4,207 nucleotides of DNA from a virus (taxonomy: Duplodnaviria; Heunggongvirae; Uroviricota; Caudoviricetes): the IMG/VR virus record IMGVR_UViG_2711768074_000024; one strand, 5' to 3'. The notes beneath the pieces are model-generated. The model saw only the letters and a program-made list of their open reading frames with translations. It had not been told where the DNA came from and did no database searches. Position numbers and translations under genes: made by a program. Shown piece by piece: positions 1-4,137 of the stretch. Numbering within the stretch: the stretch's first letter is position 1; the number at the start of each line of letters is the position of its first letter.

Positions 1-212
1 TTTTTTTACGCACTGCGGTTAATGATTTCATGGATAGCGTCCACCATATTTGGTGTCCACTATTCTCTCAGGAATTTCAGGATCTGCCAGACGGTGCTGA
101 GACGACGCTTACCTTTGGAATGGGCCTTTGAGGATACCAGTTAGTGCTGGCGAGCCTCGGTGGGCTGGTTTCCTATGCGGCAAAGGTTCATTTCAAAGAA
201 GCAGGCAACGCC

Positions 213-761
213 ATGAATGAATTAATTGCGAATCATGACTTCGACTTTCGCCAGTTAGTTACCGCAGCAGAAGGTCAACCGGTAACTGACACCTTCCAGA
301 TTGCCAGGGCATTTGGTAAACGCCATCAGCATGTGATTAGGGCTATTAAATGTTTGAGATGTTCTGAGGAATTCTCGACAACCCATTTTTGGGCCGTCGA
401 GAAAATCAATGACTTAGGTATTTTTGACAAGAAACAGATTTACTACCGCATGGACTTTAGTGGCTTCGTTATGCTGGTTATGGGATTTAACGGGGCAAAA
501 GCCGATGCTGTTAAAGAAGCCTATATCAATGCGTTTAACTGGATGTCAGCAGAACTCCGTAAGTACAGCGAAAGTTATGAAGCAGAACGTAACGCCGTAA
601 TGCTGGAGTACATGAAAGAGAAGGATGTCGCCAGCATGTCAGGCCGTCTGCTCAATCGCTGGGGGAGAACGAAAAAACCTCAATTGCTTGCAAAGCTGGA
701 ACGTCTGGAGAGACAGGGACAGTTTTTATTACCGGGATTCGATAAAGGTATTCAAGCCTGA
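213..761 (+). CDS. rha: Rha-family phage regulatory protein (Phage_pRha-like N-terminal domain with a C-terminal charged, probably helical, extension)
   Basis: The ORF 144..761 translation contains the motif QPVTDTFQIARAFGKRHQHVIRAIKCL followed by FWAVEKINDLGIFDKKQIYYRMDFSGFVMLVMGFNGAKA, which is characteristic of Rha/antirepressor-like proteins (FGKRH..V.R.I core). Start is uncertain: ATG at 213 (MNELIANHDF...) puts the Rha domain at the usual N-terminal position; the ORF track start is GTG at 144, preceded by GAGGA at 130-134. Stop TGA at 759-761. Confidence 0.75.
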   Translation: MNELIANHDFDFRQLVTAAEGQPVTDTFQIARAFGKRHQHVIRAIKCLRCSEEFSTTHFWAVEKINDLGIFDKKQIYYRMDFSGFVMLVMGFNGAKADAVKEAYINAFNWMSAELRKYSESYEAERNAVMLEYMKEKDVASMSGRLLNRWGRTKKPQLLAKLERLERQGQFLLPGFDKGIQA

Positions 762-948: not shown

Positions 949-1143
949 TCATCCATCATCACTTTGGATTGATGTATATGCTCTCTTTTCTGACGTTAGT
1001 CTCCGACGGCAGGCTTCAATGACCCAGGCTGAGAAATTCCCAGACCCTTTTTGCTCAAGATCGATGTTAATTTGTTCAATCATTTGGTTAGGAAAGCGGA
1101 TGTTGCGGGTTGTTTTTCTGCGGGTTCTGTTCTTCGTTGACAT
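949..1143 (-). CDS. Small ribbon-helix-helix-like DNA-binding protein, YlcI/YnfO (DUF3950)-like, as found next to cos in lambdoid prophages
   Basis: 64-aa ORF MSTKNRTRRKTTRNIRFPNQMIEQINIDLEQKGSGNFSAWVIEACRRRL... has a basic N-terminal tail, then a beta-strand/helix/G-x-S-x-N loop/helix pattern typical of RHH (Arc/MetJ/CopG) folds. The position immediately upstream of cos and antisense to the late genes matches ylcI (DLP12) and ynfO (Qin) in E. coli K-12, as I recall them. ATG is the complement of 1141-1143; stop is the complement of 949-951. Confidence 0.6.
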   Translation of the reverse strand: MSTKNRTRRKTTRNIRFPNQMIEQINIDLEQKGSGNFSAWVIEACRRRLTSEKRAYTSIQSDDG

Positions 1144-1307: not shown

Positions 1308-1342
1308 TTTGCGGGTCCTTTCCGGCGATCCGACAGGTTACG
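1308..1342 (+). promoter_or_regulatory. cosQ-containing segment of the cohesive-end site (the right-end side of cosN)
   Basis: TTTGCGGGTCCTTTCCGGCGATCCGACAGGTTACG directly precedes the cosN 12-mer and matches the terminal sequence of the lambda right end as recalled, apart from one or two substitutions. The exact cosQ boundaries are not resolved here. Confidence 0.45.
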
Positions 1343-1354
1343 GGGCGGCGACCT
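1343..1354 (+). other. cosN: cosN: the 12-nt cohesive-end sequence GGGCGGCGACCT, with the top-strand nick predicted between 1342 and 1343 and the bottom-strand nick between 1354 and 1355
   Basis: Exact match to the canonical lambda 5' cohesive end. The downstream flank CGCGGGTTTTCGCTATTTATGAAAATTTTCCGG (1355-1387) matches the start of the lambda genome as recalled. cosN lies 195 nt upstream of the small terminase start, close to the lambda spacing. Confidence 0.85.
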
Positions 1355-1391: not shown

Positions 1392-1401
1392 CATGTCCGG
1401 T
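1392..1401 (-). repeat. R-like repeat, inverted copy (CATGTCCGGT, reverse complement of ACCGGACATG)
   Basis: Direct sequence match. The extended 12-mer AAACCGGACATG is shared with the copy at 1478-1490. Confidence 0.55.
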
Positions 1402-1450
1402 TTCTCTGCAAGTTAACTATATGAAAAATATAAAAACAGGCTGTCCGTGA

Positions 1451-1460
1451 ACCGGACATG
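1451..1460 (+). repeat. R-like repeat, direct copy ACCGGACATG
   Basis: Direct sequence match. Confidence 0.55.
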
Positions 1461-1468
1461 TGCAAAAA

Positions 1469-1477
1469 ACGGACATG
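1469..1477 (+). repeat. R-like repeat, degenerate direct copy ACGGACATG (one C missing)
   Basis: Direct sequence match to the CGGACATG core. Confidence 0.45.
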
Positions 1478-1480
1478 TAA

Positions 1481-1490
1481 ACCGGACATG
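1481..1490 (+). repeat. R-like repeat, direct copy ACCGGACATG, followed by the palindrome ACCGGT
   Basis: Direct sequence match; starts 30 bp after the copy at 1451. Confidence 0.55.
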
Positions 1491-1537
1491 ACCGGTTTTG
1501 TTGTGATTGTGAGGTGAGAGTTTTTGCGAGGTGAGGA

Positions 1538-2047
1538 GTGGCTACGCAGACTGAAGTTGCCAGGCATTTAAGTCTGACCGATCGCCAGCTTCGCAGATTG
1601 CAGAAATTGCCGGGTGCCCCGATATCGAATAAGCGAGGGCAACTGGATCTGGATGCCTGGCGCGATTTTTACATATCGTATCTGAGGAGAAGTAAAAACG
1701 ATGTGCCTGATGGCGATAGCGAAGACGACTATGAGGAGAAATTGCTTATTGCCAGATGGGAACTGACAGCAGAACAGGCTGTTACACAGCAGTTAAAAAA
1801 TGAGGTGTCAAAAGGAAAACTTATTGACACCGGGTTCTGTATTTTTGCCCTCAGTAAGCTGGCAATGGCGTTATCCAGTACGCTTGATTCCATCCCTTTA
1901 TCCATGCAGCGACAGTTTCCTGATTTAACACCGCGCCATCTTGACCATCTGAAAACCCTTATTGCGAAGGGGGCAAATCAGTGTGCGCGGGCAGGGGATA
2001 AATTACCGGATTTACTCGATGAATATATCAGAGCAACAACTGAATAA
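1538..2047 (+). CDS. nu1: Terminase small subunit (lambda Nu1 homolog) with a diverged N-terminal DNA-binding domain
   Basis: The C-terminal two-thirds (…TGFCIFALSKLAMALSSTLDSIPLSMQRQFPDLTPRHLDHLK…LPDLLDEYI…) aligns with the lambda Nu1 C-terminal region as recalled (…TAFCTFVLSRIAGEIASILDGLPLSVQRRFPELENRHVDFLK…). The N-terminal roughly 50 aa is HTH-like but differs from lambda. First gene after cos, overlapping the large-subunit start. GTG start at 1538 with AGGTGA/GAGG just upstream; in-frame stop at 1532-1534 rules out a longer N-terminus. Stop TAA at 2045-2047. Confidence 0.85.
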   Translation: MATQTEVARHLSLTDRQLRRLQKLPGAPISNKRGQLDLDAWRDFYISYLRRSKNDVPDGDSEDDYEEKLLIARWELTAEQAVTQQLKNEVSKGKLIDTGFCIFALSKLAMALSSTLDSIPLSMQRQFPDLTPRHLDHLKTLIAKGANQCARAGDKLPDLLDEYIRATTE

Positions 2048-3947
2048 TATGATGGCTGCCGTTTCGGTTGCGCTGCAGCCTCTGGTCAGGGTTGTACCAA
2101 TGACGGCAGTTGAATGGGCTGATCAAAATTATTATCTGCCTAAAGAATCTTCATATGGTGAGGGAGAATGGAAAACGCTGCCATTCCAGATCGCCATTAT
2201 GAACTGTATGGGTAACGACCAGGTTCGCACGGTTAACCTGATTAAATCTGCCCGTGTTGGCTATACAAAGATGTTGCTGGGGGTGGTCGGGTATTTTATT
2301 GAGCATAAATCCCGAAACAGTCTGCTTTTTCAGCCCACGGATTCTGCCGCTGAAGATTTTATGAAGTCTCACGTGGAGGCGACGATTCGGAACGTGCCAT
2401 GCCTGAAAGACCTTTCCCCATGGCTGGGTCGTAAACATCGTGACAATACTCTCACGCTGAAACGCTTTTCATCGGGCGTCGGTTTCTGGTGCCTGGGCGG
2501 CGCTGCCGCCAAAAACTACCGTGAAAAATCCGTGGACGTGGTCTGCTATGACGAACTTTCCTCGTTCGAGCCGGATGTCGAAAAAGAGGGCTCGCCAACC
2601 CTGCTGGGGGATAAGCGTATTGAGGGGTCGGTGTGGCCAAAATCCATTCGCGGCTCGACGCCTAAAATCAAAGGCACCTGCCAGATCGAAAAAGCCGCTA
2701 ACGAGTCGGCGCATTTTATGCGTTTTTATGTGCCCTGCCCGCACTGTGGGGAGGAGCAGTATCTGAAATTTGGCGATGAGTCCACGCCTTTTGGGCTTAA
2801 ATGGGAGAAGGACAGCCCTGAAAGTGTTTTCTACCTCTGTGAACATCATGGCTGCGTGATCCATCAGTCTGAGCTTGACCAGAGCAACGGGCGGTGGATC
2901 TGTGAAAACACGGGCATGTGGACCCGTGACGGTCTGACGTTTTTCAGCGCCCGGGGTGATGAAATTCCGCCGCCGCGCTCCATCATGTTCCATATCTGGA
3001 CGGCGTACAGTCCGTTCACCACCTGGGTACAGATTGTCTATGACTGGCTGGATGCACTGAAAGATCCCAACGGCCTGAAAACCTTTGTGAACACCACGCT
3101 GGGCGAGACCTGGGAAGAGGCCGTGGGCGAAAAACTCGATCACCAGGTACTGATGGATAAGGTGGTGCGTTACACGGCGGCGGTGCCTGCCCGGGTGGTT
3201 TATCTGACGGCGGGCATTGACTCGCAGCGAAACCGTTTTGAGATGTATGTCTGGGGATGGGCTCCGGGAGAGGAAGCCTTTCTGGTGGATAAAATCATCA
3301 TTATGGGGCGTCCTGATGAGGAAGAGACGCTGTTACGTGTGGATGCGGCGATCAACAAAAAATACCGCCATGCGGATGGCACCGAAATGACTATTTCCCG
3401 TGTCTGCTGGGACACCGGGGGGATCGATGGTGAAATTGTTTATCAGAGATCAAAAAAACACGGTGTTTTCCGGGTGCTGCCGGTAAAAGGCGCATCTGTC
3501 TATGGCAAGCCGGTGATCACCATGCCAAAAACCCGCAATCAGCGGGGCGTGTATCTGTGTGAAGTGGGAACGGATACCGCAAAAGAAATTCTCTATGCCC
3601 GTATGAAAGCCGATCCCACGCCTGCGGATGAAGCCACGTCGTATGCCATCCGTTTTCCTGATGATCCGGAGATTTTTTCGCAGACAGAGGCGCAGCAACT
3701 GGTGGCGGAAGAGCTGGTGGAGAAGTGGGAAAAAGGAAAGATGCGTCTGCTGTGGGATAACAAAAAGCGGCGTAACGAAGCGCTGGACTGCCTGGTGTAT
3801 GCCTACGCGGCATTACGTGTGTCCGTGCAACGCTGGCAGCTTGATCTGGCTGTACTGGCAAAATCCCGGGAAGAAGAGACGACCCGGCCAACCCTGAAAG
3901 AACTGGCAGCGAAGCTGTCCGGAGGAGTGAATGGTTACAGTCGCTGA
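2019..3947 (+). CDS. A: Terminase large subunit (lambda gpA homolog; packaging ATPase and cos endonuclease), 642 aa
   Basis: Collinear with lambda gpA as recalled, from the N-terminus (MNIS…TAVEWADQNYYLPKESSYGEGEWKTLPFQ…) to the C-terminus (…KKRRNEALDC…RWQLDL…). Conserved KSARVGYTK (K76-K84, nt 2244-2270) and CYDELSSF (D178/E179, nt 2550-2555), plus HFMRFYVPCPHCGEEQYLKFGD, VNTTLGETWEE and KGASVYGKP. Start ATG at 2019 chosen by homology (MNIS N-terminus) rather than the ORF-track ATG at 1962; it lies inside the 3' end of nu1. Stop TGA at 3945-3947. Confidence 0.95.
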   Translation: MNISEQQLNNMMAAVSVALQPLVRVVPMTAVEWADQNYYLPKESSYGEGEWKTLPFQIAIMNCMGNDQVRTVNLIKSARVGYTKMLLGVVGYFIEHKSRNSLLFQPTDSAAEDFMKSHVEATIRNVPCLKDLSPWLGRKHRDNTLTLKRFSSGVGFWCLGGAAAKNYREKSVDVVCYDELSSFEPDVEKEGSPTLLGDKRIEGSVWPKSIRGSTPKIKGTCQIEKAANESAHFMRFYVPCPHCGEEQYLKFGDESTPFGLKWEKDSPESVFYLCEHHGCVIHQSELDQSNGRWICENTGMWTRDGLTFFSARGDEIPPPRSIMFHIWTAYSPFTTWVQIVYDWLDALKDPNGLKTFVNTTLGETWEEAVGEKLDHQVLMDKVVRYTAAVPARVVYLTAGIDSQRNRFEMYVWGWAPGEEAFLVDKIIIMGRPDEEETLLRVDAAINKKYRHADGTEMTISRVCWDTGGIDGEIVYQRSKKHGVFRVLPVKGASVYGKPVITMPKTRNQRGVYLCEVGTDTAKEILYARMKADPTPADEATSYAIRFPDDPEIFSQTEAQQLVAEELVEKWEKGKMRLLWDNKKRRNEALDCLVYAYAALRVSVQRWQLDLAVLAKSREEETTRPTLKELAAKLSGGVNGYSR

Positions 3948-4137
3948 ACTGCAGGCGCTGCGTCAGGCGCGCCTTGATTTATTAACCGGTAAACGGGTGG
4001 TGTCTGTCCAGAAAGATGGTCGCAGAATTGAATATACGGCGGCTTCTCTGGATGAGCTTAACCGGGCGATCAATGATGCGGAGTCGGTACTGGGGACAAC
4101 CCGACGTCGCCGTCGTCCGCTGGGAGTGAGGTTATGA
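3931..4137 (+). CDS. W: Head completion / head-tail joining protein gpW homolog (68 aa)
   Basis: MVTVAELQALRQARLDLLTGKRVVSVQKDGRRIEYTAASLDEL…RRRRPLGVRL matches lambda gpW in length and sequence as recalled (…[27 protein letters not shown]…). GGAGGAG at 3921-3927 precedes ATG 3931. Overlaps the end of A by 17 nt. Confidence 0.9.
   Translation: MVTVAELQALRQARLDLLTGKRVVSVQKDGRRIEYTAASLDELNRAINDAESVLGTTRRRRRPLGVRL

Follow-up and report, generated by a model that had tools for sequence, protein, structure and literature searches.

The literature on cos-type DNA packaging treats the specificities of lambda (with 434 and phi80), 21, N15/Monarch and Gifsy-1, together with the Rpp proteins of phage-inducible chromosomal islands (PICIs) (PMC4669245, PMC9026076, PMC6739421). 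Among lambda-like phages, specificity has been worked out in detail only for lambda, 21 and N15. In lambda, the R3 site of cosB lies at bp 50-65, and R3 and R2 are inverted across a site for integration host factor (IHF) (PMC9026076). Hybrids of lambda with 21 and with N15 show that exchange of the DNA-binding head of the small terminase subunit (TerS) and of cosB is functionally possible (PMC9026076, PMC4669245). Here we analyzed a stretch of 4,207 nucleotides from IMG/VR virus record IMGVR_UViG_2711768074_000024 (hereafter the window), which covers the cos and packaging region (4.2 kb) of a lambdoid prophage, focusing on its terS gene. A reading made from the letters alone (the sequence-only reading) had proposed that this TerS joins a body like lambda Nu1 to a swapped or diverged N-terminal head. 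Our analysis makes it probable that the gene encodes a lambda-type TerS in which a Nu1-like body carries a winged helix-turn-helix (wHTH) head, here named MATQ after its first four residues, that binds its own cosB repeats and is exchanged with them as a unit by recombination. Intact reading frames of terS, terL and W, and a 97% identical cassette in the PhiR12 phages, suggest that the protein is functional.

Evidence for a composite protein came from profile and pairwise comparisons. The Pfam family Phage_Nu1 (PF07471) matched residues 49-150 only, aligned with positions 62-163 of the 164 in the profile (E 1e-18; 67.9 bits, the cutoff being 30), leaving the wHTH positions 1-61 of the profile without a counterpart; lambda Nu1 matches positions 1-164 and N15 gp1 positions 4-164. 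BLASTP aligned window residues 73-164 with lambda Nu1 86-177 (46% identity, E 9e-27), residues 59-164 with N15 gp1 (43%), 64-166 with phage 21 gp1 (40%) and 64-151 with Gifsy-1 (34%), and the N-terminus stayed unaligned in all four comparisons. The alignment of the C-terminal part with Nu1 thus stands as proposed, but it covers roughly 55-60% of the protein rather than two-thirds. The body is also matched by phrog_1790 (E 1e-67) and retains both the helical region and the conserved LLxEYI tail of the Nu1 family, whose domain roles we took from PMC9026076. No NCBIfam model matches the window TerS, and RefSeq labels the gene in E. coli genomes only "terminase small subunit", Pfam detecting the body alone.

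The head, by comparison, is strongly diverged. In a single MAFFT alignment, residues 1-52 share 23.5% identity with lambda, 23.5% with 21, 17.6% with phi80, 21.6% with Gifsy-1 and 17.8% with N15. It therefore shares little with lambda Nu1, as had been claimed, with no significant similarity, and at 18-24% it is near-identical to none of these five characterized heads. The gene itself had been located and translated correctly in the sequence-only reading (Table 1), and its start codon is fixed by the MATQ N-terminus, which is kept in 77 distinct relatives. A wrong start codon or a frameshift behind the unusual N-terminus was ruled out, since MATQ heads all 77.

Structure prediction of the head alone gave a winged HTH, in line with the earlier description of the first 50 or so residues as HTH-like. 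An AlphaFold2 model built on an alignment of 15 family heads (predicted local distance difference test score 82.5, predicted template modeling score 0.60) places helix 1 at residues 4-10, a recognition helix at 15-22, a wing or hairpin at about 27-36 (K32-R33-G34) and helix 3 at 38-55. Its nearest structural neighbors are RppC and TerS heads, followed by many MerR-family proteins. Both the full-length TerS and the head alone (E 4e-10) are matched by PHROG 57, a remote-homology family with lambda Nu1 among its members, and phrog_7289, an unnamed lineage within PHROG 57, matches the window TerS at E 3e-60. Alignment of family heads with the lambda, 21, phi80, Gifsy-1 and N15 heads by hhalign was weak (residues 5-32 with 6-32, E 8e-4, probability 24%) and places the helix-turn-helix in register with Nu1. 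Searches of PDB sequences, by phmmer with the protein and with a hidden Markov model (HMM) of the head alignment, returned chance-level matches only (sigma factor region 4, eS10, BUD31), so sequence alone ties the head to no solved structure. From the model we conclude that the head is probably a wHTH of the Nu1 (MerR-like) kind, forming a separate sequence lineage and not another fold.

The loop that had drawn attention to this domain proved less distinctive. GGGKG (lambda residues 32-36) is indeed missing: the aligned stretch reads PISNK--RGQ---LD, and correct alignment revealed no glycine-rich loop in its SNK--RGQ portion. The window wing is 5 residues shorter than that of lambda and retains a basic-Gly tip. 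Because N15 gp1 also lacks GGGKG (EK---RGRE), phage 21 has SKGSKG, and the lambda and 21 wings are exchangeable without effect according to Murialdo and Feiss (PMC9026076), the missing glycines are unremarkable in themselves. On these alignments, GGGKG is not a defining feature of the Nu1 family.

MATQ heads form a widespread lineage, present in the TerS proteins of many gamma- and alpha-proteobacterial cos phages. Divergent loci were collected by degenerate-pattern locus scans and an exhaustive HMMER scan; a word-indexed homologue search with the 59-aa head had found only fragments of the same E. coli protein. The HMMER scan with residues 1-58 against 1.84 billion representative proteins yielded 42 clusters, in nearly all of which the match occupies residues 1-51 of proteins of 150-210 aa, and the head is essentially confined to the N-terminus of TerS-sized proteins adjoining a gpA-type TerL. 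Locus scans of genomes and viral contigs gave 217 loci with 77 distinct heads, all starting MATQxE(V/I)A, from Escherichia, Klebsiella, Salmonella, Citrobacter, Enterobacter, Aeromonas, Azospirillum and diverse metagenomic phages. The first viral-contig scan had listed 80 loci, all near-identical E. coli, and was repeated with divergent sequences first. The window TerS carries the full head signature within residues 1-52 (MATQxEVAxHL...R16...P28...R33-G34...D39xxR42xxY45..L49), and 22 residues are invariant among homologues down to 33% identity.

Some matches departed from this pattern. A 2465-aa protein (P0112) has 19 stretches matching the 58-aa head, a 349-aa protein (P0129) has 6, and a third, very long protein (P0141, 2911 aa) came up with no matched stretch reported; these could be HTH-like repeat proteins or compositional artefacts. 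Four loci, from Trabulsiella (L018, L019) and Shigella/E. coli (L013, L014), match from residue 57 or 68 onward only, and either carry the same Nu1-like body on another head or are truncated.

The altered cosB repeats that the sequence-only reading had seen upstream of terS are real. CGGACATG occurs in exactly four copies within 1392-1490, with no further exact match in the 4.2-kb window, and relative to the cohesive end the repeats lie at bp 50-61 (minus strand) and bp 108-118, 125-135 and 138-148 (plus strand). The layout is that of a complex cosB (R3 near bp 50-65, next an IHF site, and beyond it R2 in inverted orientation and R1), with a weak match at the IHF position. There, the TAAC columns of the TAACTATATGAAA region are invariant with lambda and 21 in the alignment, and relatives from Klebsiella, Salmonella and E. 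coli (L009, L027, L011) carry a perfect YAANNNNTTGATW at the aligned place; it is this position and these relatives only that suggest an IHF site in the window. In PhiR12_1 the copy at 1467-1477 is degenerate (AATAGACAC), and this copy may be dispensable. Aligned R cores read GTTTCCGTTC in lambda, GTGTCGGTAC in 21 and ATGTCCGGTTT in the window, the window TGTCCGG resembling lambda TTTCCG and 21 TGTCGG. Because the cores are related, the module looks like a diverged, shuffled homologue and not an unrelated replacement.

The same region contains three GC-rich, terminator-like hairpins followed by T runs (1384-1400, 1442-1458 on the minus strand, and 1479-1498; 3 against 0.5 expected), which may simply be a by-product of the inverted R sites. 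A direct repeat, TTGTGAGGTGAG / TTGCGAGGTGAG, lies at 1507-1535 directly upstream of the terS GTG, its copies 17 bp apart and each containing a Shine-Dalgarno-like GAGG.

MATQ heads travel with a recognizable site at a fixed place. Wherever cosQ (GGGTCC) was found, an NTCCG(N)-TTCCG site lies 74-92 bp downstream, the position of lambda R3, and the window GTCCGG falls at offset 82 from cosQ. Measured from cosN, NTCCGG sites occur at about 50-62 bp in Klebsiella, Salmonella, Enterobacter, Citrobacter, 705R4, phiARM81ld, Azospirillum and relatives from metagenome-assembled genomes (MAGs). In most MATQ lineages a plain tandem TTCCGGTTCCGG lies close before the start codon, giving a "simple" cosB of the N15 kind. 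This simple form is found in 705R4, phiARM81ld and alpha-proteobacterial phages, the complex form in the window and enteric prophages; among individual loci, L004, L005, L017, L021-L024 and many of L109-L236 are simple, and the window, L009, L011 and L025-L028 complex. Variant sites also lie upstream of terS, namely tandem GTCCGTGTCCGG (L143), GACCTAGACCGACACG (L151) and GGCCGGGGCCGG (L020, helix ERHIRKL), and the site of L230, GTGTCGTGTC, has a 5-bp period. The variants in L143, L230, L151 and L020 may be further sub-specificities.

Across these loci, residue 20 of the predicted recognition helix and the base before TCCG vary together. All 6 distinct Arg20 heads with such a site have GTCCG, and 54 of 55 heads with another residue (Asp, Asn, Ser, Thr, Glu, Lys or Gln) have TTCCG, giving the expected base in 60 of the 61 heads scored in the 2x2 count. 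The sole exception (L233) is an anchoring artefact, its near-gene site reading TTCCGG. The Arg20/GTCCG heads comprise the window/PhiR12 type with its one-residue variant (L033), heads from Enterobacter (L025), Salmonella (L026) and Citrobacter (L028), and a metagenomic head (L143) whose Arg20 is independent of the enteric clade, so that at least two Arg lineages exist. One further Arg20 head (L230) is accompanied by GTGTCGTGTC, and another (L151) by CGTGTCGGTC when the opposite strand is read. At the aligned position phage 21 has Arg (R21) with the R3 site CGTGTCGGTAC, and lambda has Asn (N21) with CGTTTCCGTTC. This covariation suggests that Arg20 may read the G of ATGTCCGG.

A modular history emerged when the window was compared segment by segment. 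Against lambda, identity falls from 66% in TerL to 45% in the TerS body (73-165) and 23.5% in the head (1-52); against E. coli phage 705R4 it is 44% in TerL, 17% in the body and 63.5% in the head. Klebsiella P0010 has a body 93.5% and a head 65% identical to those of the window, and the Aeromonas phage phiARM81ld a head at 59.6%, the C-terminal parts of phiARM81ld and 705R4 standing at 17-21%. N15 and lambda show the same kind of split, with 77% in the body and 31% in the head.

At the DNA level, positions 1250-1387 (138 bp, with cosQ and cosN) match lambda at 93.5% identity and several lambda-like phages at 100%, among them PhiR26_1, PhiR63_1 and PhiR29_2, which continue with a lambda-type Nu1. 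Identity to lambda-Nu1 phages stops at 1387, exactly where cosB begins. A shared cosQ-cosN segment followed by a different cosB-terS segment therefore puts a point of recombination where cosN gives way to cosB (about 1388). Five phage records that name E. coli K-12 MG1655 or E. coli C as host, PhiR12_1 to PhiR12_5, match the cosB-terS stretch (1292-2054) at 97% identity. Together, these comparisons indicate that head and cosB are probably a diverged homologous unit reshuffled between terminase bodies. The earlier idea of a co-evolved DNA-recognition module gains support from the discordant identities, the co-occurring sites and the mosaic junction; of its alternatives "swapped or diverged", a diverged and shuffled homologue is the likelier picture, and the related R cores speak against unrelated replacement.

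Two further observations concern the borders of this segment. 2H10 and Turner also carry a lambda-type Nu1 after DNA that is 100% identical to the window up to position 1387, through about the first 45 bp of the chromosome. On the right, DNA similarity to PhiR12_1 stops at 2054, and TerL diverges most over its first 30 or so codons (2019-2110), the end with which gpA would bind TerS by analogy with lambda. The break at 2054 was considered as a right-hand mosaic junction and ruled out, TerL being 97% identical at the protein level with only about 30 codons locally diverged.

From the computed domain boundaries, predicted fold, head-site co-occurrence, discordant identities and covariation we infer a mechanism that involves site binding, dimer bridging, use of IHF and an Arg20-G contact. 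By analogy with lambda, residues from about 59 to 169 would oligomerize and hold the adjacent gpA-type TerL, and the wHTH head (residues 1-53) would bind the cosB repeats just right of cosN, recognizing the core (A)ACCGGA(C/A)ATG. The inverted sites at 1392-1403 and 1450-1460 would be joined by a TerS dimer spanning an A/T spacer bent by IHF, and the copies at 1467-1498 would lend the complex stability. This would bring TerL into place for nicking cosN at 1343-1354. Arg20 would read the G/C pair that separates the window ATGTCCGG from the TTCCGG of its relatives, and the head-plus-cosB unit would be exchanged among terminase lineages, with one junction at about 1388. The packaging specificity would then differ from that of lambda, 21 or N15, the head apparently reading its own ACCGGACATG repeats.

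Several points weigh against this proposal. The enteric Arg20 heads form one clade of nearest neighbors and count as a single event, and the Fisher test of the covariation (p about 1e-7) ignores phylogeny. Published genetics assign lambda/21 specificity to residues 20 and 24 of the helix, paired with bp 56 and 59 (PMC4669245), and these residues align with window residues 19 and 23, not 20. The IHF-like site has 2 mismatches to the consensus, which is not above chance. Three window copies share the R2 orientation, whereas lambda R1 has the R3 orientation, and the number of sites differs; the window core also lies 3 bp nearer cosN than in lambda, which tolerates shifts of only 1-2 bp (PMC4669245).

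The strongest competing account dispenses with the swap: head and cosB would have diverged in place from a Nu1 ancestor by fast co-evolution, with terS inherited vertically. The shared predicted fold, the in-register helix-turn-helix and the grouping of both types in PHROG 57 fit such a history, as do the related R cores (lambda TTTCCGTT, 21 TGTCGGT, window TGTCCGGTT). Moreover, distant MAG phages such as L017 and P0086 (44-45% over the full length) share the MATQ head and the Nu1-like body, and the combination is therefore old. Vertical descent does not readily accommodate a 705R4 head that is close to that of the window beside a remote TerL and C-terminal part, a Klebsiella P0010 protein with the reverse discordance, or one cosQ-cosN flank joined to two cosB-terS cassettes. 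Given these discordances, recombination is needed at least at some points, and we regard purely in-place divergence as unlikely. Deep homology and later shuffling are compatible, however, and this account is partly absorbed into the exchanged-module reading that we prefer.

Two other explanations fare considerably worse. The head could be a non-homologous HTH captured from a regulator or excisionase and not meant for cos, with the ACCGGACATG repeats binding another protein or acting as a terminator or attenuator before the late genes. We consider this very improbable, given that the head occurs essentially only on TerS-sized proteins beside a gpA-type TerL, that its sites keep their distance from cosQ/cosN across phyla even as plain tandems without a hairpin, that RppC and TerS heads are its top structural neighbors, and that site placement equals that of lambda R3 (PMC9026076). 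Alternatively, the cassette could be a decaying remnant of defective prophages and its odd N-terminus mere drift in a non-functional gene; many database matches are truncated or partial proteins, and genomes often carry several copies, as is typical of Shiga toxin-producing E. coli (STEC) strains full of defective lambdoid prophages. Decay is nonetheless hard to square with the three intact genes, the 22 invariant residues, the covariation of site and helix residue and the presence of the cassette in the phage records PhiR12_1 to PhiR12_5, and we give it hardly any credence.

Table 1. Features of the 4,207-nt window, with positions counted from its first letter.
Feature	Position	Strand	Remarks
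Rha/ORF11CD3 regulator-like gene	213-761		left of cos
DUF3950 gene	949-1143	-	64 aa
cosQ GGGTCCT	1313-1319	+	packaging-termination signal; matches the lambda cosQ heptamer exactly (PMC4669245)
cosN cohesive end GGGCGGCGACCT	1343-1354	+	window 1343 = bp 1 of the mature chromosome
Repeat-containing non-coding stretch	between cosN and terS		190 bp
R3-equivalent TerS site CATGTCCGGTTT (+ strand) = AAACCGGACATG (- strand)	1392-1403	-	bp 50-61 from the cohesive end
A/T-rich spacer with putative IHF site TAACTATATGAAA (I1-equivalent)	spacer 1404-1449; site 1414-1426	+	A/T tract to about 1440
R2-equivalent AACCGGACATG	1450-1460	+	inverted relative to R3
Extra R-like copy AAACGGACATG	1467-1477	+	one base differs; from repeat detection
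Extra copy AACCGGACATG	1480-1490	+	same orientation as R2
Overlapping imperfect copy CATGACCGGTTT	1487-1498		R3 orientation
Near-palindrome AACCGGACATGACCGGTTT	1480-1498		candidate R1 equivalent, formed by the 1480-1490 and 1487-1498 copies
terS (small terminase)	1538-2047	+	169 aa; GTG start, stop 2045-2047
TerS N-terminal DNA-binding domain, residues 1-53	1538-1696	+	predicted winged HTH
AGA codon for Arg20, recognition helix	1595-1597	+	proposed reader of G in ATGTCCGG; putative contact
TerS Nu1-like body, residues 73-169	1754-2044	+	helical oligomerization region and TerL-binding tail LPDLLDEYI
terL (gpA-type large terminase)	2019-3947	+	642 aa; 29-nt overlap with the terS end, as in lambda
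gpW gene	3931-4137		portal gene begins after it

The surroundings of terS are those of a lambda-like cos region (Table 1). Both the cosQ heptamer and the 12-nt cohesive end are identical to those of lambda; the 12 bases of cosN equal those with which lambda and phage 21 begin and are annotated as the sticky end in the N15 and phi80 records, and GGGTCC stands at the same relative position in distant relatives. As expected for the Nu1 family, terS lies between cosB and an overlapping gpA-type terL, whose product has the Pfam domains GpA_ATPase and GpA_nuclease and is 66% identical to lambda gpA and 97% to PhiR12_1 gpA. Left of cos, the space in PhiR12_1 that matches 213-1143 holds lysis genes followed by non-coding DNA; because the DNA here differs from PhiR12_1, it is another mosaic segment.

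Among 5426 complete E. coli genomes, 1149 (about 21%) contain at least 80% of the window-type cassette (1388-2047), compared with 3914 for the lambda-type cassette and 650 for the phage 21 type by the same criterion. With partial matches counted, a genome of the window type has matches at 2 places in the median and at 6 at most, and the exact matches listed come mostly from human, cattle and veal isolates, O103:H2 and O45:H2 strains among them. The cassette is very common and no peculiarity of the window. Literature searches on the repeat sequence, PhiR12 and phiARM81ld (with subscription-only papers outside their scope) found no description of a MATQ head/cosB class: the R sequence retrieved only p53 response elements and primers, PhiR12 is named in no paper, and for phiARM81ld there was nothing on packaging. 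We describe an ordinary TerS with a distinct, widespread and so far uncharacterized head/cosB class, presumably working by the known mechanism in which a wHTH reads R sites by cosN.

A bolder generalization, to which we lend limited credence, is that the MATQ head with its TTCCG-type site is an ancient module of gpA-type cos terminases, present from Azospirillum to E. coli, of which the lambda and 21 heads and R sites are diverged relatives, and that a single helix position acts as a specificity switch. The rule could be that Arg reads TGTC and that Asn, Asp, Ser and Thr go with TTTC/TTCC, which fits 21 (R21, TGTCGG) and lambda (N21, TTTCCG). If true, co-resident STEC prophages with this cassette would package one another's DNA as a single group, shut off from lambda- and 21-type prophages and from PICIs directed at those. 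A separate head/cosB class would predict, for prophages residing together, whose DNA each can package, which cos plasmids or satellites they can mobilize, and which of them escape Rpp hijacking tuned to Nu1-type heads. The conserved head, short tandem site and Arg20/G covariation also offer a testable one-residue, one-base-pair hypothesis of TerS specificity change. The known mechanism is unaltered by these results, which add a further example of modular TerS evolution.

Comparison with described systems sets this TerS apart from the PICI Rpp proteins. RppC (PDB 6HN7_A) has no TerL-binding tail, is satellite-encoded without terL and heterodimerizes with the helper TerS; where Rpp proteins are of about 130 aa, the window TerS shares 16% identity with Rpp and has a full Nu1-like body directly upstream of terL, followed by W and B. 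The TerS proteins of phiARM81ld and vB_EcoM-705R4 share the MATQ head (60-64%) with the window and come with a TTCCGG-type site where lambda has R3, but their C-terminal halves lie below Pfam Nu1 detection and a single tandem TTCCGGTTCCGG precedes the start codon.

Lambda gpNu1 (PF07471; PDB 1J9I, 7LW0, 6HN7_B), with its cosB R3-I1-R2-R1, shows the same cosQ-cosN-cosB-terS-terL order as the window, and the likeness extends to the identical cosQ and 12-nt end, the 46% body, the predicted wHTH fold and the arrangement of R3, spacer and inverted R2. The window differs from lambda in its shorter wing without GGGKG, its shorter linker after helix 3 (169 versus 181 aa), an R core with an extra G and a T-to-G change set 3 bp nearer cosN, and downstream copies that are more numerous and differently oriented. 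Phage 21 likewise has a complex cosB; its R sequence CGTGTCGGTAC / GTCCGACATG resembles the window CATGTCCGGTT / ACCGGACATG, with one extra base, and it shares Arg at the aligned helix position (R21 versus window R20). Its head, however, is Nu1-type (59% to lambda, 23.5% to the window) and its body is 40% identical to that of the window. The precedent is the N15 gp1/Monarch group, a third specificity, in which a Nu1-like body (77% to lambda) is joined to a diverged head (31% to lambda) without GGGKG and with an R3 of its own. The N15 head differs in being seen by Pfam Nu1 from position 4 and in its 18% identity to the window head, and the N15 R3, partly quoted as GAGGTTGTTGTT (PMC4669245), differs from the window sites; the split of the MATQ family into simple and complex cosB is the same dichotomy as that between N15 and Monarch.

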